Positions 32,072 to 48,953 of a stretch of DNA of 62,022 nt are shown piece after piece (within the stretch, counting starts at the first letter, position 1; every line of letters begins with the position of its first letter). The translations under genes were made by a program, and so were the position numbers. The stretch comes from Candidatus Spyradocola sp. (GTDB lineage Bacteria; Bacillota; Clostridia; Christensenellales; UBA1750): NCBI GenBank assembly GCA_034113365.1, contig JAXEXP010000174.1, forward strand, positions 1 to 62,022, given 5' to 3'. The notes beneath the pieces are model-generated. The model saw only the letters and a program-made list of their open reading frames with translations. It ran no database searches and had not been told where the DNA came from.

Positions 32072-32338
32072 CGGAATCCCTGTTTTCTTCGGAGAACAGG
32101 GATTTTTTACGCCCAAAATGATTTTGAAGATGAAACAATTAGGTACTGGAAAATTGGAAGTTAAACGAAGATTTACTTGTGAAACAGGGGGATTTATGTT
32201 AATATAATGGTGAAAAATGAATACGCGGGGTACGATACAAGCAGCAGGATGCGGTCCGATACGATACAAAGCAGAATGCGCGGCTGGGTCGTGCCTAAAG
32301 TTTTATTTACGAACCTTTTTCAGGAGGTGGAAGGGAGC

Positions 32339-32752
32339 TTGAAACGCAGAGTGGACGCTGCGGTGAAGCGAGAGACGATCTACATCGCGGTGTGGACGGC
32401 AGTGCTCAGCGCGCTGATGGAGGCTGTGTTTCTGATATTGGGCAGATGGGACGTCACGGTGCTGCTGGGCAACCTGCTGGGCGGGCTTGCGGCGGTGCTG
32501 AACTTCTTTTTGATGGGACTGACCGTGCAAAGCGCGGTGGACAAGCCGCAGGACGAGGCGCGCACCGCGATGAAGGCGTCGCAGGCGCTGCGCAGCGTGA
32601 TGCTGCTGGTGGTGCTGGTGGCGGGCGCGGCGGCGCCCTGTTTCCACCTGATCGCCGCGATCCTGCCGCTGTTCTTCCCGCGCATTGCCATCGCGCTGCG
32701 GCCGCTGTGGGACAAGGCCGGGCGCAGGGAGGAAAAAAACGATGAGAAATAA
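32339..32752 (+). CDS. atpI: ATP synthase protein I
   Basis: Four-TM small protein first in the atp operon; TTG start after GGAGG/GGGAG. Confidence 0.7.
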   Translation: MKRRVDAAVKRETIYIAVWTAVLSALMEAVFLILGRWDVTVLLGNLLGGLAAVLNFFLMGLTVQSAVDKPQDEARTAMKASQALRSVMLLVVLVAGAAAPCFHLIAAILPLFFPRIAIALRPLWDKAGRREEKNDEK

Positions 32753-33641
32753 ACCCGGAAGCCGCGCCTTCAAGGCGCTGGACGCGCTGTACCTGGTGCT
32801 GGCGGTGCTGCCGCTGGCCTTCGGCATGGCGCTCAAGGTGCTGACCGAGCCGCCCGCAGACGGCATCGCCATCACGGGCGCGCGCATCTACTTTACGCTG
32901 CCGCTGCCGCTGGGCGGCATGCCCGTGACCGAGGCGCAGGTCAACTCGGTGCTGGTGATGCTGACCATCTTCTGGCTGTGCCGGTACCTGACGCACGGCA
33001 TCTCCGTCAAGTGCGGCACGCGCAGGCAGCACGCCGCCGAATGGATCGTGGGCACCGTGGAAAAGCTGGTCAAGGAGAACATGGGCAGCTATTTTGAGGG
33101 CTTTGCGCCCTTTATCGCAGCGATCCTGGCGCTGTCGGCGCTCTCGAGCCTGCTGTCGCTGCTGGGGATGTACCCGCCCACGTCGGATCTGAACGTGGTG
33201 GCGGGCTGGGCGATCCTGGTGTTCGTGCTGATCACCTATTACAAGTGCAAGTGCGGGCCGCTGCACTACCTCAAGAGCTTTACCGAGCCCGTACCGCTGC
33301 TCACGCCCATGAACATCATCAGCGAGGTGGCAACGCCCATCTCTATGGCCTTCCGTCACTACGGCAACATCCTGTCGGGCACCGTGATCTCGGTGCTGGT
33401 GGCGGCGGGGCTGCAGGGGCTGTCCTCGATGCTGCTGGGCTGGCTGCCCGGCGCGCTGGGCGAGATCCCCTTTCTGCAGATCGGCATACCGGCCGTTCTG
33501 TCCATCTACTTTGACGTGTTCAGCGGGTGTCTGCAGGCGTTCATATTCGCCATGCTGACCATGCTGTACGTCTCCGGCGGATTCCCGGCGGAGGAATACG
33601 AGAGGCGGCAGGCGAAAAAGCGCGCCGCCGGATCCCACTGA
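32742..33641 (+). CDS. atpB: F0 ATP synthase subunit a
   Basis: PPTSDLN, PISMAFRHYGNI, LQAFIFAMLT. Confidence 0.93.
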   Translation: MRNKPGSRAFKALDALYLVLAVLPLAFGMALKVLTEPPADGIAITGARIYFTLPLPLGGMPVTEAQVNSVLVMLTIFWLCRYLTHGISVKCGTRRQHAAEWIVGTVEKLVKENMGSYFEGFAPFIAAILALSALSSLLSLLGMYPPTSDLNVVAGWAILVFVLITYYKCKCGPLHYLKSFTEPVPLLTPMNIISEVATPISMAFRHYGNILSGTVISVLVAAGLQGLSSMLLGWLPGALGEIPFLQIGIPAVLSIYFDVFSGCLQAFIFAMLTMLYVSGGFPAEEYERRQAKKRAAGSH

Positions 33642-33669
33642 CGAACGAAAAAAACGGAGGGTAAGAACC

Positions 33670-33954
33670 ATGTTGGAACTTGCGATTGGTATCATTCTTG
33701 GCTGCTGCGCGCTGGGCGCAGGCGCGGCGATGATCGCCGGTATCGGCCCGGGCATCGGCGAGGGCAACGCGGTTGCAAGCGCCTGTGAGGCCATCGGCCG
33801 CCAGCCCGAGAGCAAGGGTCAGGTGACCACCACCATGCTGATGGGCTGCGCCATCGCCGAGACCACCGGTCTGTACGCGCTGGTCATCGCCATTCTGCTC
33901 ATCTTCGTCGCCCCGAGCAGACTGGTGAGCATACTCGTCAACACCATCGGCTAA
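33670..33954 (+). CDS. atpE: F0 ATP synthase subunit c (Na+-type signature)
   Basis: GIGPGIGEG, RQPE loop, AIAETTGLY. Confidence 0.95.
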   Translation: MLELAIGIILGCCALGAGAAMIAGIGPGIGEGNAVASACEAIGRQPESKGQVTTTMLMGCAIAETTGLYALVIAILLIFVAPSRLVSILVNTIG

Positions 33955-33973
33955 GACTTTGGAGTGAACCGCT

Positions 33974-34489
33974 ATGCAATCGCTGGAAGTCATATCCTTC
34001 AACCTATGGCAGATGCTGATCTCGCTGGCCAACCTGGTGATCCTGTTCTGGATCCTCAAGCGCTTCCTGTTCAAGCCCGTCAAAAAGGTGCTGGCGCAGC
34101 GCCAGGCGGAGCTGGATTCGCAGTACGCCGCGGCGGGCGAGGCGCAGCAGAAGGCCATGCAGGATCAGCAGCAGTGGGCCGAAAAGCTGCGCGGCGCGCA
34201 GGATGAGGCCGACGCGCTGCTCAAGTCCGCCGCAGACGACGCGCGCAGCCGCGGGGAGCGCATCGTGGCCGAGGCGCGCAGCAAGGCCGACGGCATGATC
34301 CGCCAGGCCGAGGCGCAGACCGCGCTGGAGCACAAAAAGGCCGAGCAGGGCATACGCCGCGAGATCGCCGACGCGTCGGTGGAGCTGGCGCAGAAGCTCA
34401 TCGGCCGCGAAATGAACGAGCAGGACCATCGCGCGCTGATCGACGCCTTCATCGACGAGATGGGAGGTGCGGACGGTGGAGCTGAGTAA
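33974..34489 (+). CDS. atpF: F0 ATP synthase subunit b
   Basis: N-terminal TM, LKRFLFKPV...L..R, coiled coil. Confidence 0.93.
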   Translation: MQSLEVISFNLWQMLISLANLVILFWILKRFLFKPVKKVLAQRQAELDSQYAAAGEAQQKAMQDQQQWAEKLRGAQDEADALLKSAADDARSRGERIVAEARSKADGMIRQAEAQTALEHKKAEQGIRREIADASVELAQKLIGREMNEQDHRALIDAFIDEMGGADGGAE

Positions 34490-35003
34490 GAGCTACGCAG
34501 CTGCGCTGTTCTCCCTGGCCGCGGAAAGCGGCGAGCAGGAGGAAGTGAGCCGCGCGCTGGAGACCGTGACGCAGGTGCTGCGCGAGAACCCGGACTACCT
34601 GGAGTTCCTTGCGGCGCCCAGCATCGCCATTGACGAGCGCAGCGCGGCCATCGACCAGGCCTTTGGCGGGCGCGTGCCTGAGCACGTGGCGTCCTTTCTG
34701 CAGGTGCTGTGCCGCAGGGGACACGCGCGCAGCTACTTTGACTGCGCAAAGGAATACCGCAAGCTGTGCGACCACGCAAACCGCATCGCGCCGGCGCGCA
34801 TCACCAGCGCGGTGGAGCTGAGCGGCGCGGAAAAGCAGGCGCTGGTGGAAAAGCTGGAGCGCCTGAGCGGCAAGATCGTGCAGCCGGAGTACATCGTGGA
34901 TGAAACGCTGCTGGGCGGCCTCATCGTGGAGATGGAGGGCAGGGTGCTGGACGGCAGCCTGAAAAAGGACCTGCAGCAAGTAAAGGAAGTGATCGTAAAA
35001 TGA
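34476..35003 (+). CDS. atpH: F1 ATP synthase subunit delta
   Basis: YA.ALF, ITSAVEL, VD..LLGG......VLDGS. Alternative start at 34467. Confidence 0.92.
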
Positions 35004-36493
35004 CCGGAAGCCCCGAAGAGATCGGAAAGATCATCAAGCAACAGATCGCGAGCTATTCTTCCCGGCTGGAGATGAAGGAAAACGGCAGCGTGATCGAGGT
35101 GGGCGACGGCATCGCAAGCGTCTATGGCCTGCGGGAGTGCATGGCAAACGAGCTGCTGGAGTTTGAGGACGGCAGCTTTGGCATGGCGCAGAACCTGGAG
35201 GAGGAGACGGTTTCCGTCGCGCTGCTGACCGACGGCGGCGACATCCGCGAGGGCACCAAGGTGCACCGCACGGGCCGCGTGCTGTCGGTGCCCGTGGGCG
35301 AGCAGCTGCTGGGCCGCGTGGTGGACGCGCTGGGCCAGCCCATCGACGGCAAGGGCCCCATCGAAACGGTGCAGACCCGCCCCATCGAGGCGGAGGCGCC
35401 GGGCATCATCGAGCGCAAGAGCGTGTCGGTGCCGCTGCAGACAGGCATCAAGGCCATCGACAGCATGATCCCCATCGGCAGAGGCCAGCGCGAGCTGCTC
35501 ATCGGTGACCGCCAGACGGGCAAGACCGAGATCGCCATCGACACCATCATCAACCAGAAGGGCACGGGCGTGCTGTGCATCTACGTGGCCATCGGCCAGA
35601 AAAACACCTCCGTGGTGCAGCTGGTGGGTGAGCTGACGCGCGCCGGTGCGATGGAATACACCATCGTGGTATCCGCTTCCGCGTCCGAGTCGGCGCCGCT
35701 GCAGTACGTCGCGCCCTATTCGGGCTGCGCGATGGCGGAATACTTCCGCGAGCAGGGAAAAGACGTGCTGATCGTGTACGACGATCTGTCCAAGCACGCG
35801 GTGGCGTACCGCGCGCTGTCGCTGCTCATCCGCCGCCCGCCGGGACGCGAGGCCTTCCCGGGCGATGTGTTCTACCTGCACTCCAGACTGCTCGAGCGCG
35901 CGGCGTGCGTGGCGCCCGAGTACGGCGGCGGGTCCATCACCGCGCTGCCCATCGTCGAGACGCAGGCAGGCGACGTGTCCGCCTACATCCCCACCAACGT
36001 CATCTCCATCACGGACGGCCAGATCTTCCTGGAGACCGAGCTGTTCCACGCGGGCGTGATGCCCGCCATCAACCCGGGCATCTCCGTCAGCCGCGTGGGC
36101 GGTTCGGCGCAGCTCAAGGCGATGAAGGCCGTGTCGGGCCCGCTGAAGCTGCTCTACTCGCAGTACCGCGAGCTGCAGTCCTTCGCGCAGTTCGGCAGCG
36201 ACCTGGACGCCGACACCAAGAAGCGCCTGGCGCTGGGCGAGCGCATCGTGGAGGTGCTCAAGCAGAACCGCAATGCGCCGGTGCGCGTGGGCTGCCAGGT
36301 GGCCATCATCTACGCGGTGAGCAACGGCTGGCTGGACAAGGTGGAGGTCAACAAGGTCGCCGATTACGAGCGCAGGCTCTACGAGCTGCTGGAAAACAGC
36401 TACGAGGATCTGCTGGAGCGCTTTGAGCAGGGCTATTACGCCGACAAGGACGTGGAGCGGCTCAAGCAGGCGCTTTCGCAGATGCAGAGGTGA
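35000..36493 (+). CDS. atpA: F1 ATP synthase subunit alpha
   Basis: [45 protein letters not shown]. Confidence 0.98.
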
Positions 36494-36499
36494 CGGCGC

Positions 36500-37312
36500 A
36501 TGGGCATGAACACGAAGAAGCTGCGCAACCGCATCCGCAGCGTGGACTCCACCATGCACCTGACGCGCGCGATGGGTCTGGTCGCGGCCTCCAAGATGCG
36601 GCGGGCGACGGAGGCGATGCTGCACGGCAGAGAGTATGCCGCAGCCGTGGAGCGCACGGCCCGGCTGCTCGTGCGCTGCCCCGAGTGCCGCAAGAGCCCC
36701 TACCTGCGCAAAAAGGGCAACGGGCGCACGTGCCTGGTGGTCATCGCGGGGGACAGGGGGCTGGCCGGCGGCTACAACGCCAATGTGTTCCGGCTGGCGA
36801 CGCAGTTCCCCGAGGCGGAATTCCTGCCCGTGGGCAAGCGCGCCTGCGAGCGGTTCGGCGGCGGCGAGCTGACGGCGGAGGGCTTCACCTACGCGGATGC
36901 GGACGAAATGGCGCGCATGCTGTGCGAGGGCTTTGCGCAGGACAAATGGGATCGCGTGGGCGTGATCTATACCCGGTATGAGTCCATGCTGACGCAGACG
37001 GCGGACGTGCGCTGGCTGCTGCCGCTGCGCGCGGGCAAGAGCGCGCCCTGCAGCGTGGTATTTGAGCCCAATGAGGAAGAGATGCTGCAGGCCGTGGTGC
37101 CGGAATACGTCTCGGGCATGCTCATCGCGTCGGTGCGCGAGAGCTTTGCAAGCGAGGTGGCCGCGCGGCGGGCCGCGATGGACTCCGCGGGCAAGAACGC
37201 CAGCGAGATGATCGAGGAACTGCACCTTCAATACAACCGCGCCAGACAGGGCGCCATCACGCAGGAGATCACCGAGATCGTCGCAGGCTCGGGCGGGATC
37301 AAGAGGAGGTAG
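36500..37312 (+). CDS. atpG: F1 ATP synthase subunit gamma
   Basis: RI.SV.ST..LT.AM.LVAASK, DRGLAGGYN, YNRARQGAITQEITEIVAG. Confidence 0.96.
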   Translation: MGMNTKKLRNRIRSVDSTMHLTRAMGLVAASKMRRATEAMLHGREYAAAVERTARLLVRCPECRKSPYLRKKGNGRTCLVVIAGDRGLAGGYNANVFRLATQFPEAEFLPVGKRACERFGGGELTAEGFTYADADEMARMLCEGFAQDKWDRVGVIYTRYESMLTQTADVRWLLPLRAGKSAPCSVVFEPNEEEMLQAVVPEYVSGMLIASVRESFASEVAARRAAMDSAGKNASEMIEELHLQYNRARQGAITQEITEIVAGSGGIKRR

Positions 37313-38979
<1,667 letters not shown>

Positions 38980-38991
38980 CGCAAATGAAAG

Positions 38992-39034
38992 AACACCCCC
39001 TTTCCTCTGAAAATGAGGATAAGGGGGTGTTTTT
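38992..39034 (+). terminator. atp operon terminator
   Basis: AACACCCCCTTTCCTC..GAGGATAAGGGGGTGTT-TTT. Confidence 0.8.
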
Positions 39035-39102
39035 GATCACCACATTATGGAAAGCGCTGGGGAAAACTTCTGATTCAGCGCAAAGAAGGAGAGACATCCT
39101 TT

Positions 39103-39150
39103 GGCTTCCCCTTGAGGGGAAGCTGGCGCCCGCAGGCGACTGATGAGGTG
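39103..39150 (+). repeat. REP-like palindromic repeat
   Basis: GGCTTCCCCTTGAGGGGAAGCTGGCGCCCGCAGGCGACTGATGAGGTG; related copy at 18128-18170. Confidence 0.7.
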
Positions 39151-39184
39151 TCAGTCCAGCGCTACATAACGTAAGGCGACGATC

Positions 39185-41365
39185 CTACGCGACGAGGATG
39201 CGGTCGACGACCAGCTTGCGGAACTCGGGGGTGAGCAGGCAGAAGTAGGCGGTAAAGCCCGTCACGCGCACCACGAGGTCGGGGAAGGCGTCGGGGTTTT
39301 CGTTGGCGGCGAGGATCTGCTGGGCGTTGATGATGTTGATGTTGAGCAGCGTGCCGCCCTTTCTAAAGAGCGTCAGGATGTAGTCGCAGATCTTGTCCAC
39401 CGCCTCGGGGCCGCGCGCCATGCCGGGGTCGAGCTCCAGCTGCACGGGCGCGGTGTTGCCGTAGCCGGGCTGGACCGAGCAGATGGCGTTGGTCATGGCG
39501 GTCAGCGCGCCGTCCTTGCGGAAGCCGGGGTGCGGGTTGGCGCCGTGGTTGATGACCTCGCCGTCGCGGCGGCCGTTGGGCGTGGCGCCCACCGCCTTGC
39601 CCAGCACGATGGTGTTGGACCAGGAGAACCAGCCGGGGATGAACTTGACGGGCGCGAACACCTCGTCCATCGCGTTGACCTGGTCGGTGAAGGAGCGGCT
39701 GATGCGCACCGCCCACTTGTCGCCCAGCGTGTCGCCGCCGCCGTAGCGCTCGGAGGCCGAGAGCATCATGCGGATGTACTCGCCGCGGGGACCCGCGTAG
39801 TTGGAGCGCACGGCCTCGTACATCTCCTCAAAGGTGAGCCGGCCCTCGCGCTCGATGCGCTGCTCCAGCGCGGCAAAGGAGTCGGCGACGGTGGCGATGC
39901 CTGTGCCGTCGATGCACATGTTGTAGTACTGCGCGCCGCCGTGGCTCATGTCCAGCCCCTTTTCCACGGGGCCGTGGGAGATCAGGTTGAGCATCAGCTC
40001 GGGCTCGTTTTTGACCTGATTTTCCAGGTGGAAGCAGATGCCCTCGGCGGTGACGCGCACGGCGCGCGCGGTGTGGGCTTCGTAGCGCCGCCACAGCTCC
40101 TCGATGGACTTCTCGCCGTCAGACGCCATCATCTCGTCCAGCGCCAGGCGGAACACCTTGGCGTTGTTGATCTTGACGCAGTCGTTGAGCGTGTATTCCA
40201 GCCCGGGCAGGCTCATCCAGTGGCAGCCCACGGCCACGCGCTGGCGGGCCAGCTCCACCGGGTAGCCCTTTTTCATGAAGCCCTCGGACAGCGCCTGGTC
40301 GCCCGAGAAGCGCGGCCAGCCGTTCTTGTTTTTGAACAGGTAATCCACCGCGGTGTGCAGGAACTTGCGGTCCATGCCGTCGTGCACGCGCACGGTCAGG
40401 TTGCAGGAGGAATCCAGCCAGTCTGCGGCCTCGAGGATCAGGTAGCTGAAATAGCTGACCATGTCGTGGCCGTCGGGCGACAGGCCGCCCAGCTGATAGT
40501 AGTGCGGGTCGTTGAGCAGCAGGCAGGCGATGTAATACTTGGCCTCGTCCTCGGTGATGAGGCCCGCGGCAAGGTCGCGCTCATAGTAGGGGCGCAGCGT
40601 CTCGTCCAGCTGGCAGCCCGCGCCGTCGCGGTTGTACTCGCGGGAGGCGGTGTTGAACCAGCACATCCACTGGCAGGCCTCGCGCAGCGTGCGCGGCGCG
40701 CCCTCGATCAGGTGCTCGTTGACGTCGCGCATCTGCTGCAGATTTTTGAGCAGCTCGGGATGGGTCTCCACCTTCATGGCCTCGTCGATGGCCTCCACCG
40801 TGCGGCGCGTCCAGACCTGGATGCCGCGGATGGTCTTTTCCTCGGCGTCGTAGAAGTCGTCGTGGCCGGGGTTGAGCGCGCGGTATTTGCGCAGCTTTTC
40901 CAGCAGGCCGCCCCAGCCCAGGGTCAGACCGATGGCGTAATCGCCGCCAAAGTGCGCGTCCGCGCCGATGCCGGGCACGATGCCGTACTTCTGCTGCTCG
41001 GGCTTGAGGTAATCATAGTTCAGGTCGGGGTTGAAGGTGATGGGACGCGTCCAGGCCATGCAGTTCATCCAGCGGTTGGCAAAGGCGTCACACGGGTCGA
41101 TGAACACCGGGTGCGTGGCCATCATGCGGTAGAAGTTCTCGCTCCAGCCGTCGTAGCCCACGAAGGTGCCCGCGGGGTGGTTGAACACCGGGGTGAAGTC
41201 ATAGTCGTCCGGGGGCTTGACCGCGCCGTAATCGTCGCCGTCGGCAAAGGCGCGGATGCCGGCCTTGTCCTGCGTATCCTCCAGCTTGCGCTCGCGCAGT
41301 ATGCGCAGCCGCTCGCGGTAGCTCACGTCCGCATCTGCGGGCAGCTTGTTGATGCGATCTCTCAT
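39185..41365 (-). CDS. Glycyl radical enzyme (PFL-like superfamily), unknown reaction
   Basis: C-terminal glycyl loop DLVVRVTGFTAYF, GATPNGR, GIATVADS.AA, Cys loop AVGCHW; adjacent activase. Confidence 0.9.
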   Translation of the reverse strand: MRDRINKLPADADVSYRERLRILRERKLEDTQDKAGIRAFADGDDYGAVKPPDDYDFTPVFNHPAGTFVGYDGWSENFYRMMATHPVFIDPCDAFANRWMNCMAWTRPITFNPDLNYDYLKPEQQKYGIVPGIGADAHFGGDYAIGLTLGWGGLLEKLRKYRALNPGHDDFYDAEEKTIRGIQVWTRRTVEAIDEAMKVETHPELLKNLQQMRDVNEHLIEGAPRTLREACQWMCWFNTASREYNRDGAGCQLDETLRPYYERDLAAGLITEDEAKYYIACLLLNDPHYYQLGGLSPDGHDMVSYFSYLILEAADWLDSSCNLTVRVHDGMDRKFLHTAVDYLFKNKNGWPRFSGDQALSEGFMKKGYPVELARQRVAVGCHWMSLPGLEYTLNDCVKINNAKVFRLALDEMMASDGEKSIEELWRRYEAHTARAVRVTAEGICFHLENQVKNEPELMLNLISHGPVEKGLDMSHGGAQYYNMCIDGTGIATVADSFAALEQRIEREGRLTFEEMYEAVRSNYAGPRGEYIRMMLSASERYGGGDTLGDKWAVRISRSFTDQVNAMDEVFAPVKFIPGWFSWSNTIVLGKAVGATPNGRRDGEVINHGANPHPGFRKDGALTAMTNAICSVQPGYGNTAPVQLELDPGMARGPEAVDKICDYILTLFRKGGTLLNINIINAQQILAANENPDAFPDLVVRVTGFTAYFCLLTPEFRKLVVDRILVA

Positions 41366-41377
41366 ACGGATCTCCTC

Positions 41378-42268
41378 CTATCCCACGCGCACCGACGGGC
41401 ACACGGCCTGTGCCGCCGCCTGAAGCGCCTGCATGCGTTCCTCGGACAGCGGGCGCGCACCGGCAAACGCGTTGTCCACGTCCAGCGCCTGATACTTGCT
41501 CCCGCCCAGGGGGTTGAAGTTGAGCAGCTCATAGTACGCAAGTCCTGGCAGCTGCCCCACAAAGCCTGCGATGGCGGCGATCTCCGCCTCGCTGTCGTTG
41601 ACGCCCGGGATCACGGGCGTGCGCACGATGAAGGGCTTGCCGCTGCGCGGCAGGCGCGCGATGTTCTCCCGGATGCGCGCATTGCCTGCGCCCGTCCACC
41701 TGCGGTGCGCGTCCTCGTCCCAGAGCTTGAGGTCGCACATCACAAGGTCCAGATCGGGCAGCAGCGCCTCCAGCGTGGAGAAATCCACGTTAAGGTTGCT
41801 CTCGATGGCGGTATGTACGCCCTCTTTGTGCAGCGCGGACAGCAGCTCCGCCGCAAACTGCGGCTGCAGCAGCACCTCGCCGCCCGAGAGCGTGACGCCG
41901 CCGCCGGACTGCGCGTAGTAGTCCACGTCCTGCATCACCTCGTGCAGCACGTCCTGCACGAGGTATTCCTTGCCGCACATCTCCAGCGCGCCGGAGAAGC
42001 ACACCTGTGCACAGGCGCCGTGATCGGCGCACGCGGCGCGGTCGTACACCATCTTGCCGCCCTCCACGCGGTGCGACGGGCAGACCTGCGCGCACGCGCC
42101 GCAGCCCACGCACTTGCTGCGGTAGTAGAGCACCTCCGGCTCCACGTGCAGCGTCTCGGGGTTGTGGCACCAGGCGCAGCGCATGTTGCAGCCCTTGAAA
42201 AACACGGTCGAACGGATGCCCGGCCCGTCATGCAGCGAGAAGCGCTGAATGGCTGTGAGTACCCCCAT
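41378..42268 (-). CDS. Glycyl-radical enzyme activating protein (radical SAM with ferredoxin-like insert)
   Basis: IQRFSLHDGPGIRSTVFFKGC.MRC.WCHNPE (CxxxCxxC), CVGCGAC..VC insert, GGVTLSGGE. Confidence 0.95.
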   Translation of the reverse strand: MGVLTAIQRFSLHDGPGIRSTVFFKGCNMRCAWCHNPETLHVEPEVLYYRSKCVGCGACAQVCPSHRVEGGKMVYDRAACADHGACAQVCFSGALEMCGKEYLVQDVLHEVMQDVDYYAQSGGGVTLSGGEVLLQPQFAAELLSALHKEGVHTAIESNLNVDFSTLEALLPDLDLVMCDLKLWDEDAHRRWTGAGNARIRENIARLPRSGKPFIVRTPVIPGVNDSEAEIAAIAGFVGQLPGLAYYELLNFNPLGGSKYQALDVDNAFAGARPLSEERMQALQAAAQAVCPSVRVG

Positions 42269-42371
42269 TGTTTCCACTCTCTTTCTGTTTATCGCTCGAT
42301 GGGATTCTGATCCGATGGTTTGATGAAAAATTCGTCGCCCTGTATAAAAAGTCCTTCCCGTTCCCCAAGGA

Positions 42372-43835
42372 TCATTCCTCCTGGCCGAAGAGCATCTGGT
42401 CGATGTAGTGTTCGTTGAAGCGGGGGTTGCCGCCGAGGGCGACATGGCGGCTGTGGGCGGCGATGCGCTCGAGCGCGGGGACGCAGGTGCGGTCGAGCAG
42501 GGTCTGCGCGGCGCCCGAGAGCGCGGCGTTGCCCAGCACGCGGACGCGGTCGGTCAGCTCGGGCGGGATGAGGCCGATGGTGGCGGCGCTGCGCACGTTC
42601 AGGTGGCTGCCAAAGCCGCCCGCGATGCACAGCGAGGTGACGTCGGCAAGGCTTGCGTCGGCAGTCTCCAGCAGGGTGAGCATGCCGGCGGCGATGGCGG
42701 CCTTGGCCAGCTGCACGGCGCGTACGTCGCGGGGCTGGAGGGCGACGCCGGGGGCGAGGGGCAGCTCGTCGTCGTCCATGGCGCCGGTCTCGTCGATGAG
42801 CTCGGCGGTCAGGCCCGCCGCGATGGCGTCGATGAGGCCGGAGCCGCACACGCCCACCGCGGGCGCGCCGTCGATGGTGTGGGAGAGGAGCTGACCGTTG
42901 ACCAGCGTGACGCGGTCGATCGCGCCGGGGACGCTGCCGCAGCCGCAGGAGATGCCCGCGCCCTCGAAGGCGGGCCCGGCGGCGGTGGAGGTGACGTAAA
43001 GCGTGCCGTCTTTCCACAGCGCCATCTCGCCGTTGGTGCCGATGTCGCACAGCAGCGCCGTTTCGTCGCGCTCGCAGATGCCGCTGGCCAGCACCGCGCA
43101 GGTGATGTCCGCGCCCACGAAGGCGTTCATGCAGGGGGGCAGGTAGGCCTGGCCGCCAAAGAGCGCGACCGTTGCGCCGAACAGCGTGTCCGCCTCGAAG
43201 GGAGCGCGGGCGAGGCTGTCGGGGCTGCGACCGGTGAGCAGGTAGAGCATGGTGGTGTTGCCCGTGACGACGAGCGCGTCGGGGGCGGGCGTGCCGGAGC
43301 GCGCGAGCAGCTGCTGCACGGCGTCCGTGACCTGCCCGCGCAGCAGGGGAAGCCTGCCGTTCAGCGCGGCGTTGATGCGGCCCATCACGTCGGCGGCGAC
43401 GCTGGCCTGCGGGTTGAGCGCGGCGGCGGTGCCGGTGCAGGAGCCGGTGGAGAGGTCGTACTGGCGCACTGCGATGGTGGTGGTGCCGATGTCCACGGCG
43501 GCGCCGGTGGAGCCGGGCAGGGGGCGCAGGGGGGCGGTGAGGTCGGCTGTGGACGTCTCGATGCGGGCGTCCCCGTGGGCCTCGGGCAGCGTGACGTCGG
43601 CGTCGCCCAGCAGCACGGCTTGACAGCTCAGGCGCGTGCCGGCGCGCTGCTCCGCAGCGTTGGGCGGGGAGACGCGGCCCGTCAGCTGTACGGCGCACTT
43701 GCCGCACGCGCCGCGTCCGCCGCAGGGATGGGGCAGCGAATAGCCCGCGGCCTGCAGCACCTCGTCCAGCACGGGCGTGCCGGAAAAGGAGACGCGCGCG
43801 GTGACGCCGCCGCGATGGATGGTCAGTTCAGGCAT
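42372..43835 (-). CDS. RACo-type ATP-dependent reductive activator of corrinoid protein (ASKHA, DUF4445) with N-terminal 2Fe-2S domain
   Basis: CGGRGACGKC..RLSC, VDIGTTT, DIGTNGE, AAGPAFEG, CGSG, VQLAKAAI.AG, IAGGFG, GNAA. Confidence 0.92.
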   Translation of the reverse strand: MPELTIHRGGVTARVSFSGTPVLDEVLQAAGYSLPHPCGGRGACGKCAVQLTGRVSPPNAAEQRAGTRLSCQAVLLGDADVTLPEAHGDARIETSTADLTAPLRPLPGSTGAAVDIGTTTIAVRQYDLSTGSCTGTAAALNPQASVAADVMGRINAALNGRLPLLRGQVTDAVQQLLARSGTPAPDALVVTGNTTMLYLLTGRSPDSLARAPFEADTLFGATVALFGGQAYLPPCMNAFVGADITCAVLASGICERDETALLCDIGTNGEMALWKDGTLYVTSTAAGPAFEGAGISCGCGSVPGAIDRVTLVNGQLLSHTIDGAPAVGVCGSGLIDAIAAGLTAELIDETGAMDDDELPLAPGVALQPRDVRAVQLAKAAIAAGMLTLLETADASLADVTSLCIAGGFGSHLNVRSAATIGLIPPELTDRVRVLGNAALSGAAQTLLDRTCVPALERIAAHSRHVALGGNPRFNEHYIDQMLFGQEE

Positions 43836-44111
43836 GGTTATCCTCCGAAAATGGGTTGTTGGCTGAAATGAGGGAAGAAACTGCGCCGTTTGGTGTAAAC
43901 AGGTTTGAAGCTGTGCGTTTCAGAAGTAAAGCAGCCTGATGGCAGAATGGCGCTGCTGCGACGAATGGTCAGTCCAGGCATGTTTTTCCTCTGAGAAAAG
44001 GTTATTTGGCTGAAAACTGGAAAGCTGCTGCGCGATCCGTTTCTAAAGGGAGAGGGCCTGACAGCAAAATGACTTGAATACGGCGTTTTACTTGATCGGG
44101 GGGACGGCGGG

Positions 44112-44660
44112 TCATTCCTCGGAGAAGAGCACCATGCCAAAGTAGGTCACGGTGTCGGGGCCGTTGATGTAGCGCAGCGAGGTGGCGCGGCTGGTCTTGT
44201 AGACGTCCACGCCGTAGCTCTCCAGCGAGGGCAGCGCCAGGTCGGGGTGGCGGCAGGGCTGGTCGCCGCGCTTGGCGCAGGTGGGGCACAGGTGGCAGCC
44301 GCCGCAGGTCAGGTGCAGCATGCGCTCGCCCAGCAGGGGCTTGACGGCGCGCTGGATGCGCTGGCTGACCTGCGCGTGCGCATCGCCCGCAGCGGTCATG
44401 CCCTCGAAGTCATAGCTGTCCTCCAGCTGGCCGATGGTCTGGTAGAGTATGCCGTAAGGGTAGCGGCGCAGCTGCTCCATCATGGGACCGATCTCGCCCA
44501 CGTCGGGCGGGCACATCCAGCACTTGCCGTAGTTGCCGCAGCCGTTGCCGGCGCAGATGTCGCGAAATTCCGTGGACGTAACGATGTCGGACTGGTGCAC
44601 GAGCCCAGCCTTGTGCGCGCCGTTTTCGATGAATAACGGAATGAGCTGTTCGTGATCCAT
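44112..44660 (-). CDS. DUF2284 family Cys-rich metal-binding protein
   Basis: C..N.CG.YG.CW.CPP, GGC.LC..C.....PCRHP....PSLE.YG.DV. Confidence 0.85.
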   Translation of the reverse strand: MDHEQLIPLFIENGAHKAGLVHQSDIVTSTEFRDICAGNGCGNYGKCWMCPPDVGEIGPMMEQLRRYPYGILYQTIGQLEDSYDFEGMTAAGDAHAQVSQRIQRAVKPLLGERMLHLTCGGCHLCPTCAKRGDQPCRHPDLALPSLESYGVDVYKTSRATSLRYINGPDTVTYFGMVLFSEE

Positions 44661-44748
44661 AGTGCGTGATCTCCTTTTCGCAAATAAAATCCCGCCCGAT
44701 GAAGCGCGCTCCACCGGACGGGGCTGGGATGGTTCAATGTGGACGCGC

Positions 44749-45384
44749 TCAGCAGGCCGTGCAGAAGCTCACGGCGCGGTCTGCGGCGCTGGCGGCGTCG
44801 GTGGTGTAGGCGTCTGCGCCGATCTGCGCGCGGAACGCCTCGTTGACGGGCGCGCCGCCGATCATGATCTTGACCTTGTCGCGGATGCCGGCGGCCTCGG
44901 CGGCCTTGACCACGTCGCCCATGACGCCCATGGTGGTGGTCAGCAACGCGGAGCAGCAGATGATGTCGCAGTGTTGCTCGATGGCGGTCTGGACGAAGGT
45001 GTCGGCGGAGACGTCGGTGCCCAGGTCGATGACCTCCAGGCCCTTGCCCTCCATCATCATCTTGACCAGGTTCTTGCCGATGTCATGCAGGTCGCCCTGC
45101 ACGGTGCCGATGCACACGCGGCCCGTCGCCTTCACGCCCGCCTGCTGCAGCAGGGGCTTGAGCAGAGACACGCCCTGGTTCATCGCGCGGGCGGCGACCA
45201 GCACCTCGGGCACGAAGATCTCGTTGTTCTTGAACTTCTCGCCGACCTCGTTCATGCCGTCGAGCAGGCCCTTTTCCAGGATCTCCTGCGCGGGGATGCC
45301 CTCGTCGATGGCCTGCTGGACCAGGGTCTTGACGATCTTGGCCTTGCCGGCCTGCAGCTGAACGGAAATTTCCTTAAGATCCAT
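44749..45384 (-). CDS. Corrinoid (cobalamin-binding) methyltransferase protein
   Basis: Cap domain GL..GM..VG.KF...E.FVPE, DLHDIGKN (DxHxxG), SALLTTT, IGGAP; AGGAGG RBS. Confidence 0.95.
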   Translation of the reverse strand: MDLKEISVQLQAGKAKIVKTLVQQAIDEGIPAQEILEKGLLDGMNEVGEKFKNNEIFVPEVLVAARAMNQGVSLLKPLLQQAGVKATGRVCIGTVQGDLHDIGKNLVKMMMEGKGLEVIDLGTDVSADTFVQTAIEQHCDIICCSALLTTTMGVMGDVVKAAEAAGIRDKVKIMIGGAPVNEAFRAQIGADAYTTDAASAADRAVSFCTAC

Positions 45385-45425
45385 ATCGAACTTCCTCCTG
45401 AAAAGTTTTATTGCGGTTTGTGGGA

Positions 45426-46400
45426 TCAGTTGTAGTCGCGCATGCGCTTCCAGACGTCGAGGATCAGCTTGTAGCGCTCGGGCGGCATGCCCTTGAAGGG
45501 CACGTTGCTGGTGCAGAAGATGTAGCCGCCGCCGGGCTTGCCGTAGGTGAGGCAGTATTCGGCGGAATCGATCACGTCCTGCTCGGTGCCGGTCTGCAGC
45601 GCTGCGCAGTGCACGTTGCCGCACAGCGCCACGCGGTCGCCCACCAGGCGCTTGACCTCCCGGATGTCCACGCCCGCCATCGGGTCGAGCGAGTGCAGCG
45701 CGTGCGGCTCGCAGTCCACCAGCTGGTCGAGTATGGGCATGATGTTGCCGTCGGTGTGCTTGATGGCGAACTGGCCGTTCCTGCGCGCCTCGTAAATGAT
45801 GCGGTGCAGGTAGGGCGCGATGAACTGGCCGAACATCCTGGGCGAGAGGAAGGGGCCGGAGTTGTAGCAGTAGTCGCTGCACAGCATCAGTATGTCCACG
45901 CCCATGTCGCGCAGACGCTTGTTGCGCTCGATGGCGTTGCGCGCCATGCGGTCGGCCTCGTCGCACAGCCCCTCGGGGTCGTCGGCGGTGCGGTAGGCAA
46001 AGTCGTACATGCCGTTGCCGTCGGGGATGGAGAAGGTACCGTCGCCGTGGTAGGCAAGGGGCTTGTCTCCGGCGGCCTCGCGCACGTATTTGACGAAGGT
46101 CTTGAACGCCTCCGGGAAGTCCGAACGGTCCTCCAGGCGATCAAAGTCGCCCACGCCGTGCAGCGGGAGTATGGAGTAGTCCAGCTGCTCGTAGACCCAG
46201 ACGGTGTACTCCGCCATCTCGTGCAGCAGGCGGTCCTTTTCGGCGGCGGAAAGCTTGGGGAGGTTCTCGGGGCGGAGCGCTTCGGGCAGCAGGGGCTTGC
46301 CGAAGAACTCCTCGGCGAGCTGGAACTCCAGCTCAAAGGTGGGCACATGGTCGGGAATGCGGCCCGACAGCGCCGCAAAGGCGCGCTCGCGATGCGTCAT
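45426..46400 (-). CDS. Uroporphyrinogen decarboxylase-family (MtaA/CmuA-like) methyltransferase
   Basis: MT.RER....L.G..PD.VP, SDY.....PFLSP..F, HTDGN, LCGNV, GGYIFCTSN. Confidence 0.85.
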   Translation of the reverse strand: MTHRERAFAALSGRIPDHVPTFELEFQLAEEFFGKPLLPEALRPENLPKLSAAEKDRLLHEMAEYTVWVYEQLDYSILPLHGVGDFDRLEDRSDFPEAFKTFVKYVREAAGDKPLAYHGDGTFSIPDGNGMYDFAYRTADDPEGLCDEADRMARNAIERNKRLRDMGVDILMLCSDYCYNSGPFLSPRMFGQFIAPYLHRIIYEARRNGQFAIKHTDGNIMPILDQLVDCEPHALHSLDPMAGVDIREVKRLVGDRVALCGNVHCAALQTGTEQDVIDSAEYCLTYGKPGGGYIFCTSNVPFKGMPPERYKLILDVWKRMRDYN

Positions 46401-46416
46401 AGCCTGCGCCTCCTCA

Positions 46417-47475
46417 TCAGTAGCGGCCCACGCGCTTGACCTCGGCCACGATGCGCTTCATATTGTCCAGCGACACGGCGTTGGGGATGGAGTGGTCGGA
46501 GGAGAAGATGAAGCCGCCGTTCTGCTTGAGCACAGGCACCTTTTCGTCGATCTCGGCCAGGATCGCGTCGGCGTCGCTCCACTTGACGGCGTTGATGCCG
46601 CCGCGCAGCGTCAGCCGGTCGCCGTACTTGCGCTTGATCTCGAACACGTCCATGCCCGCCTTGACCTCCAGCGGGTTGAGCGCGTCCACGCCGGTGGCCA
46701 CGATGTCGGGCAGCAGCGTCATGATGTCGCCGCAGGAGTGCAGCTGCGCGTAGACGCCGTGGTCGTGCGCCCACTTGACGGCGCGGGTGTGGTAGGGCTG
46801 CAGTAGCTCGCGGTACATGTTGGGCGAGAAGAACGTGGTGCCCTTGTAGCCCATGTCGTCGTACCAGAACATCTCGTCAAAGTGATAGCCCGCGTCCCAC
46901 AGCCGGTCGTAGAGCGCGATGGTGTGGTTTAAGTAGGTGTCGAAGATGTCCTCGATAAATTCGGGCTCTTCGATCATGGCGACGAGCAAGTTCTCGGTGC
47001 CCATCATCCACGAATGCGTCACGTCAAAGCCGAACCAGAACACGCCGCGGATCCAGCGGCCCTCGGCGCGCCACTTGTCGTAGTTTTCCTTGAGATAATC
47101 CCAGGGGATGCGGTCGTCGGAAAGCGTCATGCGCTTCTTGGCTTCCTCCCAGGCTTCGGGCGTGGTGACCTTGTAGTCCAGGAACTCCGGGGTGGAGTCC
47201 TCTTCCTTGAAGTGCTTCATCGTCACGCCCCAGGGCGAGGTGCGGATGGCGTAGCGGTCGGTCTCCTCCAGCGTCACCTCGGGGTAGCGTGGGGAGATGT
47301 CGATGTTGATGACGCCGATCTTGTCGATGTCAAAATAATCGCACCAATCCACGTCCGCGGGCATGCCCTCGCGCTTCCAGCGGCGCAGCGTGCCCGCCCA
47401 CGGATCGTCGATGATCGGGATCCGGTCGGCCTCACGGTGGTCATACATGCGCTTGAAGCGCTCCCATGAGTTCAT
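46417..47475 (-). CDS. Uroporphyrinogen decarboxylase-family (MtaA/CmuA-like) methyltransferase
   Basis: ER......E.DRIP, DDMG......SP, HSCG Zn motif, NPLE.KAGMD, GGFIFSSDHS; AAAGGAG RBS. Confidence 0.88.
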   Translation of the reverse strand: MNSWERFKRMYDHREADRIPIIDDPWAGTLRRWKREGMPADVDWCDYFDIDKIGVINIDISPRYPEVTLEETDRYAIRTSPWGVTMKHFKEEDSTPEFLDYKVTTPEAWEEAKKRMTLSDDRIPWDYLKENYDKWRAEGRWIRGVFWFGFDVTHSWMMGTENLLVAMIEEPEFIEDIFDTYLNHTIALYDRLWDAGYHFDEMFWYDDMGYKGTTFFSPNMYRELLQPYHTRAVKWAHDHGVYAQLHSCGDIMTLLPDIVATGVDALNPLEVKAGMDVFEIKRKYGDRLTLRGGINAVKWSDADAILAEIDEKVPVLKQNGGFIFSSDHSIPNAVSLDNMKRIVAEVKRVGRY

Positions 47476-47731
47476 TCTATTCACTCCTTTTGGGATCTGT
47501 AACTTCATGATAATCGATTCTTGCAGGTAAAACAACATGGTTTTCACGATGTGATACGCTTGTCGTGCGGAAAACAAAATTTTGGACAAGGCATTTGTAT
47601 TGTATATTACAAAACGCGGCGGACGGCAATGCACATACGGCGTTAAAGTGAAGCAAAAGCGATACACAAACGCGGGAAAATGCTGTATAATAGGAAGGGT
47701 TTATGGAGCGAAGGAAAGGGGAGGCTGGGCT

Positions 47732-48493
47732 TTGGAGCAGGCGATGAGGACCGAGCTGGTGGTGCGCACCGCAAAGCTGGCGGGGCGGCTGCTGCTGGAA
47801 AACGGAGCGGAGACCTACCGCGTGGAGGACACGGTGAGCTACATCTGCAATCAATACGGCCTGACGGACGTGGAGGTCATCGCGCTGCCCACGGGCGCCA
47901 TCTACTCCTTTGTCGACGAGCAGGGCGTGCCGCACAGCGAGGTGATCCGCACCAAGGTGCGCACCACGAACCTGGGGTGCGTCGCGCGCGTCAACGACAT
48001 CTCCCGCGGCATGACCTCGGGGCGGCTGACGCTGGAGGAGGGCTGCGCGAAGCTGGAGGAGATCAGCCGCACGGGCCCGCAGCCACTGTGGCTGAGCCTG
48101 TTGGCCAACATGCTGTCGGCGGCCTTCTTTGCGCTGCTGTTTGGCGCGCAGTGGTTTGATTTCATCGTCGCGGGCGTGTGCGGCGGCGTGGCGCGGCTGC
48201 TGGGGCTGCTGTTCAGCGAGGACAACATCTCCTCGACCATGTACAGCCTGCTGGCGGGCGCGCTGTCCTCCGTCATTGCGCTGGCAAGCGTCCGCATCTT
48301 CTCCATGGGCAGCCAGACCGCCATCATCACGGGCGCCATCATGCCGCTGCTGCCCGGATTGGCCATCACCAACGCCATCCGCGACACCGTCAACGGCGAC
48401 CTGGTCTCGGGCGTGGCGCGCACGGCGGAGGCGCTGCTCAAGGCGATCGCCATCGCGGCGGGCGTGGGTGTGGTCATCGCGCTGTGGCGGTAA
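47732..48493 (+). CDS. Threonine/serine exporter family protein (ThrE)
   Basis: GRLLLENGAETYRVEDT, IMPLLPGLAITNAIRD..GDL.SG. Alternative ATG at 47744. Confidence 0.9.
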   Translation: MEQAMRTELVVRTAKLAGRLLLENGAETYRVEDTVSYICNQYGLTDVEVIALPTGAIYSFVDEQGVPHSEVIRTKVRTTNLGCVARVNDISRGMTSGRLTLEEGCAKLEEISRTGPQPLWLSLLANMLSAAFFALLFGAQWFDFIVAGVCGGVARLLGLLFSEDNISSTMYSLLAGALSSVIALASVRIFSMGSQTAIITGAIMPLLPGLAITNAIRDTVNGDLVSGVARTAEALLKAIAIAAGVGVVIALWR

Positions 48494-48506
48494 GGAGGGC
48501 GTTGGC

Positions 48507-48953
48507 ATGACGATTGCAAGGCTGTTGTTTGACCTGATCGTCGCGGGCATCGCGACGGCGGGCTTTGGGCTGCTGTTCCGCACGGAAGGGAAGTCGCTGC
48601 TGCCCTGCGCGGTCATCGGCGGCGTGGGCTACATCGTGTACGACTGGATGGCGATGGAACTGGGCTCCGCGCCGGTGGCGGCGTTCATCTCCTGCCTGCT
48701 GGTGGGGCTGGTGGCGGAGGCCGCGGCGCGCATCCTCAAGGGCCCCACGATCGTGTTTGCCACGATGGGCATCATCCCCATGGTGCCCGGCTACGGCATG
48801 TACCGCACGATGGAAGCCGTGGTGCAGGCCGACTATGAGCGGGCGATCTCGGTGGGCATCGAGACCATCATGGTGGCGGGGGCCATCGCGCTGAGCCTGG
48901 GATTTGCCACGGTCATCGCGCGCAGGCTCATCAGCAGGCGCCGCGCGCGGTAG
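48507..48953 (+). CDS. Threonine/serine exporter small subunit (ThrE_2)
   Basis: GF..LF, GIIPMVPG..MY; paired with the upstream gene. Confidence 0.88.
   Translation: MTIARLLFDLIVAGIATAGFGLLFRTEGKSLLPCAVIGGVGYIVYDWMAMELGSAPVAAFISCLLVGLVAEAAARILKGPTIVFATMGIIPMVPGYGMYRTMEAVVQADYERAISVGIETIMVAGAIALSLGFATVIARRLISRRRAR

Follow-up and report, generated by a model that had tools for sequence, protein, structure and literature searches.

The DNA considered here, called the window below, is a stretch of 62,022 nt from Candidatus Spyradocola sp. (GCA_034113365.1, contig JAXEXP010000174.1), taken from an assembly of 175 contigs that represents a 93%-complete genome. On its minus strand, seven genes bring together a corrinoid-dependent methyl-transfer cassette and a glycyl radical enzyme (GRE) with its activase. 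An earlier note on this DNA had proposed that the two chemistries may work in one pathway. The comparisons described here instead point to two separate systems, the cassette and the activase-GRE pair, which have probably come to lie side by side through a recent deletion. In what follows, G000 denotes this genome, G001 and G005 both denote its sister genome (in which cassette and GRE lie on contig C75), and L numbers denote loci. The genes and features of the locus are as follows.

47475-46417, minus strand: UroD1, 352 aa; weak Pfam URO-D match (71 bits, C-terminal half only)
46400-45426, minus strand: UroD2, 324 aa; weak Pfam URO-D match (64 bits, C-terminal half only)
45384-44749, minus strand: corrinoid protein, 211 aa; Pfam B12-binding and B12-binding_2; DLHDIG at residue 98
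44691-44722, minus strand: hairpin of 14 bp with a T-rich tail, 3' of the corrinoid gene; kept in the window and the sister, the latter having its additional 1.0 kb MtaA-like gene at this site
44660-44112, minus strand: DUF2284, a Cys-rich predicted metal-binding protein, 182 aa; Pfam DUF2284
43836-44111, minus strand: spacer of 276 nt between DUF2284 and RACo; absent from the sister
43835-42372, minus strand: RACo/RamA-type activator (2Fe-2S and ASKHA), 487 aa; Pfam Fer2, RACo middle and RACo C-terminal
42269-42371, minus strand: likely deletion junction between RACo and activase, 103 nt; the sister has 6.1 kb at the same place
42268-41378, minus strand: GRE activase, a radical SAM protein, 296 aa; Pfam Radical_SAM and Fer4; GPGIR, CxxxCxxC and a ferredoxin insert
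41365-39185, minus strand: GRE, 726 aa; Pfam PFL-like and Gly_radical

All seven open reading frames are present in the order first described, each with an ATG and a Shine-Dalgarno-like site. From UroD1 to the GRE they are separated by 16, 41, 88, 276, 103 and 12 nt, so that the two gaps first given as about 100 and 275 nt measure 103 nt (42269-42371) and 276 nt (43836-44111). The activase scores well above the NCBIfam TIGR02494 cut-off (329.6 against 174.35). A single contig from an independent sequencing run (X2) covers 39123-48500 and with it the whole gene order, while the RACo-activase junction is also crossed by contigs of two further studies (X6, 39128-42962; X4, 42170-42963). The DNA runs containing the stretch are mostly from pig gut; strain contigs were compared for four of the 24 runs that hold it, one of the four being possibly the source, and the indels listed among them are all intergenic. 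Against the sister genome, dN/dS lies between 0.04 and 0.17 across all seven genes, a whole-branch average that cannot date selection to the time after the deletion. The seven genes are thus real, intact and correctly named, and independent strains from the pig gut show the same order. One could suspect that the assembly had wrongly left out a 6 kb block, given that the sister has this block and the window comes from an assembly of many contigs, but such an artefact is refuted by the contigs of three further studies (X2, X6 and X4) that cross the junction, and its probability is negligible.

Origin of the RACo-activase junction

The sister genome is colinear with the window at 84-90% DNA identity and is longer at two points. 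At the RACo-activase junction it carries an additional 6.08 kb, which begins directly after RACo with a 12-bp hairpin followed by a U-rich tail (z -5.7). A cellobiose-2-epimerase-like gene comes next on the opposite strand (308 bits against a cut-off of 800, a family-level assignment only), and after it a GntR/LacI regulator, a sugar-binding protein and two permeases lead into the activase and the GRE. The second addition, of 1.0 kb, lies between the corrinoid gene and DUF2284 and consists of a third UroD-family gene, which is MtaA-like and has the His-Cys-Cys ligand set; no orthologue of it was found in the 93%-complete genome of the window (best tblastn match 26%). In the sister, DUF2284 and RACo overlap, with no 276-nt spacer. 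Because a terminator hairpin and an opposite-strand gene split them, the two halves of the locus cannot form one transcript in the sister. In the window, the 103-nt spacer between RACo and activase contains no hairpin (z +1.9); the terminator was lost with the deletion, and read-through from RACo into the activase is therefore now plausible. Within the 276-nt spacer, 43948-44033 is a degenerate tandem duplicate of 43802-43886 (76% over 86 nt), comprising the RACo ribosome-binding site and first codons; it opens a 47-codon frame just upstream of RACo and is absent in the sister.

The same block of epimerase, regulator, ABC importer, activase and GRE has been detected at L002 and L006/L114, where the GRE is 90-91% identical, gyrB-gyrA occupies the position of the sister's cassette and the permease-activase gap is about 30-40 nt. 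The epimerase gene itself is found at 73-100% identity in L002, L005, L006 and L115. A tree of 74 sequences places the window and its sister as terminal tips within a clade that carries the ABC genes. The adjacency of cassette and GRE is thus likely to be derived, by way of a recent deletion, as far as comparison of sequences can tell. The GRE would at first have closed an operon of regulator and ABC importer genes, flanked by a cellobiose-2-epimerase-like gene in divergent orientation, a polarity suggested by the tree. In the common ancestor of the window species and the sister, the cassette would have come to lie tail-to-tail with the epimerase. Two deletions in the window species would then have taken away the MtaA-like gene and the epimerase-regulator-importer block together with the terminator. 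Transcription from the cassette may now continue into the GRE pair, which would make the arrangement a secondary operon fusion.

Transcript data contribute little to this question. Contigs from RNA libraries (four of six RNA runs) cannot show transcript ends, and none of the pieces listed crosses from RACo to the activase. In one study, in which DNA may be present, pieces of X15 and X16 end at 42258 and 42250, near the start of the activase; one X15 piece joins RACo, DUF2284 and the corrinoid protein, and one X16 piece of 3057 nt comprises activase and GRE. None of these contigs is used as evidence. A promoter scan was uninformative, returning three sites against 1.2 expected and none before the activase, and an alignment of activase upstream regions revealed no common motif beyond the ribosome-binding site.

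Occurrence of the two modules in other genomes

To survey the neighbourhood of the GRE, 85 relatives were identified by genome scan; 80 were kept and gave 79 loci at 44-96% identity, with upstream sequence of at least 4.1 kb in 53 of these and at least 9 kb in 41. The nearest named relatives belong to Christensenella sp. UBA7102 (96%) and Ca. Spyradocola (89-91%). The activase accompanies the GRE in 74 of the 79 loci. None of the 79 fetched flanks contains a corrinoid gene, that of the sister lying just beyond 10 kb, and DUF2284 and true RACo each occur once, both times in the sister. A 'RACo' match at L029 was set aside as a 97-aa match to the ferredoxin region only. The neighbours that do recur are Gfo/Idh/MocA dehydrogenases (46 loci), ABC permeases (18), xylose-isomerase-like barrels (15) and cupins (12). 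A wider hidden Markov model (HMM) set of 131 GRE loci, some of them duplicates, with 128 full-length sequences in 89 clusters at 90% identity, yielded a corrinoid gene in one locus (L298), in addition to the sister's just outside the flank.

The cassette presents a similar picture when approached from its own side. The GRE is absent from all 20 corrinoid-centred loci and from nine further ones; the former hold RACo in 13, DUF2284 in 9 and a UroD gene in 14 cases. The run UroD1-UroD2-corrinoid protein-MtaA-like-DUF2284-RACo recurs at 65-88% identity in L168 and L170, where another gene and no GRE follows, and L169 has the cassette run without a GRE on a contig that ends after the MtaA-like gene. 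Since the run recurs without the GRE in these loci and the corrinoid-centred loci lack it, the cassette is a unit in its own right. Among the 14 genomes of the order with both a corrinoid protein and the GRE clade, the two share a contig only in G000 and G005. These comparisons show that the GRE-corrinoid arrangement is not a conserved unit in the genomes sampled. The association of UroD, corrinoid protein and RACo, like that of GRE and activase, has stood, and what fails is their union as a conserved system: GRE homologues usually occur without the corrinoid module, the very finding that the earlier note had named as refuting its proposal, and in the sister a terminator and an opposite-strand gene part the two.

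A number of observations nevertheless weigh against two separate systems. The deletion took the terminator together with the regulator and importer of the GRE itself, yet the seven genes are intact in several strains, and intact genes after a deletion are also the look of a selected fusion. In G359, from another order, locus L298 (C18:8000-19049) runs RACo, UroD, an MtaA-like gene, an AraC gene, corrinoid protein, activase and GRE; the MtaA-like gene and AraC are divergent, the last three genes are co-oriented, a beta-galactosidase lies beside them and the GRE is a paralogue of 42% identity. The chance of one such direct adjacency was put at 0.02-0.04, a rough, post hoc figure that assumes uniform gene placement, and G359 carries only three UroD genes. 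With sensitive HMMs over the fetched flanks, UroD genes were found in 13 of the 131 GRE loci and 11 of the 89 clusters. A same-strand UroD gene lies less than 1 kb from the GRE in L282, L286/L287 and L308/L309, with L286 reading regulator-ABC-activase-GRE-UroD-GH2-GH38-UroD on one strand, and a UroD gene heads the L141 operon. The GREs in these operons are paralogous, and uniform gene placement would make such neighbours improbable. Most of the genomes are drafts, so that location on different contigs is not the same as distance, and G017, with corrinoid gene and GRE both at contig ends, cannot be judged. Lastly, the residue roles discussed below come from sequence alignment, and the substrates of both modules may be called no more than putative.

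These observations bear on the proposal of a single pathway, in which plant glycans would release an O-methylated sugar or sugar acid for the cassette to demethylate, and the GRE, distinguished by a Cys-x-Trp loop, would act on the demethylated, oxidised product. The modules would usually work in trans and lineages would repeatedly join them, with the deletion selected for the sake of one promoter. The loss of the terminator at the RACo-activase junction, the independent run in G359, the 11 clusters with UroD genes, the five loci with a same-strand UroD gene within 1 kb and the one-strand operon of L286 all speak for it. Both modules also keep, separately, sugar-catabolic company: an alpha-fucosidase lies beside UroD2 orthologues in L121, L123 and L196, and genes for GH127, an FGGY kinase and arabinose-isomerase-like proteins lie beside cassettes. 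Across the 301 genomes of the order, the corrinoid protein occurs in 77 and in 14 of the 24 that have the GRE clade, although kin are not independent. On the other hand, at E<=1e-55 the corrinoid protein is absent from the remaining ten GRE genomes, and in the sister an opposite-strand gene parts the modules. Nor is the arrangement of G359 shared by G697, its one family relative, which has the modules on separate contigs and no cassette in the 16 kb surrounding its GRE. The count of 11 clusters in 89 is too high, as 20 of the 54 places in the wider set were chosen with a bias to UroD-rich genomes, and four of the five genomes counted with UroD genes by the GRE carry 20-44 of them, many in sugar islands. 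The GRE-adjacent UroD proteins are orthologous neither to each other nor to UroD1 or UroD2, the only matches that reach 30% over 150 residues being those of sister pairs, a single pair at 32% and the MtaA-like gene. Taken together, a single pathway appears unlikely. The broader form of the proposal is equally doubtful: by an anaerobic route not yet described, gut Clostridia would pass O-methylated plant sugars through expanded UroD enzymes that share one corrinoid protein, and then through Cys-x-Trp GREs acting independently of Glu on the oxidised product, the window locus and G359 being independent one-operon cases.

Several loci with a superficially similar arrangement were rejected. In L190, 191, 192, 197, 201 and 222, an activase-GRE-kinase-PMI-like run lies 5-7 kb upstream of a UroD2 orthologue; the GRE, with a GCQE loop and 21-22% identity, is of another family, EamA and MntR genes separate it from UroD2, and the six loci share one gene order and are not independent. 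L252 (UroD1, MetF-like, MetH, an opposite-strand gene and a GCVE-type GRE) was set aside, its corrinoid match being MetH. The GRE at L190:750-3125, also in L192 and L197, has 792 aa, a GCQE loop and a Gly loop, RIHGTF, that is missed by Pfam Gly_radical; its operon also encodes an FGGY kinase and a PMI-like cupin. The sugar operons of L282, L286/L287, L308/L309 and L141 additionally hold GH2/GH38, DUF1861, aldolase or dehydrogenase genes, and the RACo frame of G359 has about 230 extra N-terminal residues.

The Cys-x-Trp glycyl radical enzyme

The GRE carries the loop G-C381-H-W383, a Cys-x-Trp motif without Glu, and its glycyl site is Gly703 (RVTGF). C381 and G703 are present in all 56 alignment rows, while Cys-x-Trp, His138, Asp395 and Lys398 are kept in all 74 clade sequences, where the loop reads Cys-His/Asn/Ser-Trp. 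This non-canonical loop had been overlooked in the earlier note, as had the loss of the MtaA-like methyltransferase. The protein falls below the NCBIfam cut-offs of the named equivalogs CutC, HypD, HpsG, HpfG, HPAD, IAD and PFL (best 221 bits, against 678-1150). Its predicted structure (pLDDT 94) has a PFL-like fold that is closest to PflD, glycerol dehydratase and propanediol dehydratase (Z 37-38, 20-23% identity), with Z 38.0 to 8yjo and 37.1 to 1r8w and root-mean-square deviations of 2.7-2.8 over about 680 residues. In a profile alignment with glycerol dehydratase, His138 corresponds to the His of 'GHVSVDY' and Asp395 to the Asp of 'HDSAF', and Trp takes the place of Glu; by our own count, we take the first of these to be the residue known as His164.

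With PflD/YbiW and the 1,2-eliminases the GRE shares the single Cys loop, the Gly loop and a cognate activase, in a sugar context like that of PflD/YbiW. It differs from them in length (726 against 764-837 aa), in small residues at the His-Ser pair of 'GHSISP' and in the invariant Lys398, and it lacks the Cys-x-Glu motif of glycerol dehydratase, propanediol dehydratase, HypD, CutC, IslA, HpsG, PflD and YbiW. With pyruvate formate-lyase (PFL), of which the genome has a separate copy on C10, it shares the absence of a Cys-loop Glu and, in a motif-anchored alignment, a basic residue at the Arg435 position, where Lys398 in K-I-N-N-A-K aligns with the Arg of R-C-N-M-A-K (R-x-N motif) in the genome's own PFL. 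This position is basic in 37 of 45 Cys-x-Trp rows, compared to two of 11 other rows. The GRE departs from PFL in having one Cys (G-C-H-W against A-C-C-V in the genome's own PFL), in a structural similarity of only Z 29-30, and in its long activase with a ferredoxin insert. According to a 2026 review (PMC13450708), eliminases and isomerases retain Cys-x-Glu as a base for the substrate hydroxyl, His164 protonates the leaving hydroxyl in glycerol dehydratase and Arg435 of PFL binds pyruvate. The Cys-x-Trp clade is uncharacterised and widespread, with members in 24 of the order's 301 genomes and, when drawn more widely, in 41 of 400 from the class. Its loop fits no eliminase, isomerase or formate-lyase pattern set out in the review, the text of which is also without the terms 'corrinoid', 'cobalamin', 'methyltransferase' and 'demethyl' (PMC13450708).

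A keto-sugar or sugar acid is suggested as substrate because NAD-dependent sugar dehydrogenases are the commonest neighbours, uronate genes lie beside the Cys-Ser-Trp subclade and Lys398 occupies the PFL Arg position; radical chemistry on an oxidised sugar or sugar acid is thus the likely function predicted for the GRE. Activases install the glycyl radical in enzymes of this family, and here it would be placed on Gly703. Gfo/Idh/MocA enzymes would beforehand have oxidised the sugar to a keto-sugar or sugar acid, and the Cys381 thiyl would abstract a hydrogen from this product. With a carbonyl already in place, the Cys-x-Glu base could be dispensed with. In the roles predicted from the alignment, Lys398 would bind the carboxylate and His138 would donate a proton to the leaving hydroxyl, so that C-O elimination would follow. 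Such a Glu-independent C-O elimination is the reaction tentatively proposed, at close to an even chance; C-C cleavage or decarboxylation is a less probable outcome.

Further GREs have been observed in this group of genomes. A second Cys-x-Trp GRE in the window genome (G000:C48:6929-9049, L135; GCNW, 39% identical) is found with an activase, a GntR/LacI regulator and a divergent ABC importer, a layout repeated in L142-L144. L060, L068, L074 and L076 have two different GREs in tandem around one activase, adjoining large carbohydrate-binding-module proteins. Another uncharacterised GRE of 707 aa with its activase lies under an AraC regulator on G000:C46 (L134:7092-10309); some 3.6 kb past this activase, a UroD-family gene follows in the same orientation.

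The corrinoid cassette

Membership of UroD1 and UroD2 in the UroD superfamily is supported by Pfam, whereas the methyltransferase role given to them in the earlier note is a reading from family. UroD1 keeps H246-S-C248 and, in the alignment, has His (S-D-H-S) rather than G-C-D at the third MtaA ligand position; UroD2 has H215-T-D and C-T-S-N instead of His-Cys-Cys. Their scores of 40 and 50 are far from the MtaA/CmuA NCBIfam cut-off of 235. The UroD1 model is confident (pLDDT 95), and its top fold matches, MtaA (4ay7) and HemE proteins, are tied at a TM of about 0.67; a single-sequence search of solved structures with UroD1 returned no match. UroD1 is 95% identical to its sister counterpart and 81% to that of L168, a relative at this level being named Hominenteromicrobium by one source. 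Corrinoid genes lie near UroD2 orthologues in three of 80 metagenome loci and near UroD1 in one of 20, and the UroD2 family appears widespread and mostly away from corrinoid genes. The orthologues of the two proteins are at times found beside alpha-fucosidases, dehydrogenases and uronate genes. Since orthologues of both proteins mostly occur without a nearby corrinoid gene, it is suggested that many donor enzymes share one corrinoid protein.

The genome has nine URO-D matches, one stand-alone corrinoid protein, one RACo and FTHFS, and its only Pterin_bind match, at 93% completeness, lies within MetH on C166. A candidate for accepting the methyl group in trans is encoded on C3, an MtaA/CmuA-like protein (132 bits) that has Phe at the position of the first His. 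At G000:C3:15044-16420 (L268), this MtaA/CmuA-like protein is fused to a C-terminal domain with a CxxC motif, and the gene after it presumably encodes a CobW-type GTPase. UroD-family expansions of 20-44 genes per genome occur in G016, G213, G278 and G409, and the corrinoid protein search gave one match each in G213 and G278.

Clusters of UroD-superfamily methyltransferases, a corrinoid protein and an activator without a folate methyltransferase have been described (Kountz and Balskus, PMC10418091). In the same paper, a His-Cys-Cys set is the signature of S/Se methyltransferases, one or both Cys being replaced in O-methyltransferases; by this rule the lost MtaA-like gene would encode an S-type methyl-acceptor enzyme, and UroD1 (His-Cys...His) and UroD2 (His-Asp...Asn) would be of O-type or another donor-specific type. 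Type 1 mlp clusters share with this cassette the co-oriented UroD-superfamily genes, the corrinoid protein, a Ram/RACE activator and the absence of a nearby tetrahydrofolate methyltransferase, and the sister's extra gene has the Mlp His-Cys-Cys set. The cassette differs from them in that UroD1 and UroD2 lack His-Cys-Cys and are far from MtaA; in place of the at least two His-Cys-Cys Mlps of such clusters, the ancestral cassette has a single Mlp-like gene and that of the window has none, with DUF2284 present and sugar rather than sulfur or selenium neighbours. Corrinoid O-demethylases (Acetobacterium OdmB/VdmB, MtvB, MtoB and CdmBCA) offer a second comparison, having in common a UroD-fold donor-specific methyltransferase (MT-I), a corrinoid protein, an ATP-dependent activator and ligands other than His-Cys-Cys. 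Unlike acetogen-type O-demethylases, the cassette cluster contains no pterin-binding MT-II gene, and the match of UroD2 to CdmB is weak (E 2e-4).

UroD1 and UroD2 are putative donor-specific MT-I methyltransferases by family. A different view is that they are other sugar enzymes on a UroD barrel, for instance decarboxylases, that drifted beside a corrinoid core which, with the MtaA-like gene gone, is here a relic or serves proteins encoded elsewhere. Their low MtaA/CmuA scores, the equal match of the UroD1 model to MtaA and HemE, the rarity of a stand-alone corrinoid gene near their orthologues and the absence of His-Cys-Cys from both would agree with this view. Against it, the run UroD1-UroD2-corrinoid protein-MtaA-like is kept in a second lineage, the corrinoid protein and RACo are under purifying selection, and the presence of 17-30 UroD2-like proteins against one corrinoid protein match in G016, G021 and G024 (G016 lying outside the corrinoid protein search) fits a shared corrinoid protein. 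Known UroD-family O-demethylases also replace or lack the Cys ligands (PMC10418091), and some need no zinc (PMC13222342). This view is accordingly considered improbable.

Under the methyltransferase assignment, the corrinoid protein in its Co(I) state would receive methyl groups that UroD1 and UroD2 would each remove from a substrate, with an O-methylated sugar as the likeliest. Oxidised Co(II) would be returned to the reduced state by RACo at the expense of ATP, and DUF2284, a regular member of such cassettes, would be an accessory metal protein. In relatives the methyl group would exit through the MtaA-like His-Cys-Cys enzyme to a thiol acceptor; in the window species, because this gene is missing from the cassette, it would exit in trans, through either the C3 MtaA/CmuA-like protein or the MetH pterin domain on C166.

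A literature search, with most subscription papers outside its reach, found no paper on a GRE and corrinoid-methyltransferase cluster, a Cys-x-Trp GRE or UroD-type sugar demethylases. A study of HpyG/HpzG (Jiang et al., 2024, ACS Catal) reportedly may link N-methyl-hydroxyproline GREs to betaine demethylation and would in that event be a partial precedent. If the two modules did form one pathway, B12-dependent demethylation would be coupled to glycyl-radical chemistry on sugars, a coupling for which the search yielded no publication. The case is strong for the GRE and weak for the joint pathway, and assaying the GRE would probably bring to light new radical chemistry by which gut sugars are broken down. 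The cassette provides a compact, testable handle on the role of the 20-44 UroD-like genes per genome in uncultured Clostridia. The lasting interest is in the uncharacterised Cys-x-Trp GRE clade and the uncharacterised UroD-corrinoid cassette, and the case shows that a deletion can yield a convincing but secondary seven-gene 'operon'.

The surroundings of the locus also deserve mention. At 47582-48953, a ThrE/ThrE_2 exporter gene pair is divergent from the cassette and is followed by an FAD-dependent oxidoreductase and uvrB/uvrA. On the other side, an F1Fo ATP synthase operon (32207-38960) lies between a PHP-domain gene and the GRE; in the sister the PHP-domain gene adjoins the GRE, and a beta-subunit match is found on another contig at only 76% DNA identity. 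A strong hairpin (38975-39040, z -5.5) separates the converging ATP synthase and GRE operons. Just 3' of the GRE, at 39095-39160, there is a palindromic repeat of about 60 nt, which we take to resemble a REP-type element; it has well over 100 partial or full copies genome-wide and is a contig break point in every DNA run compared.

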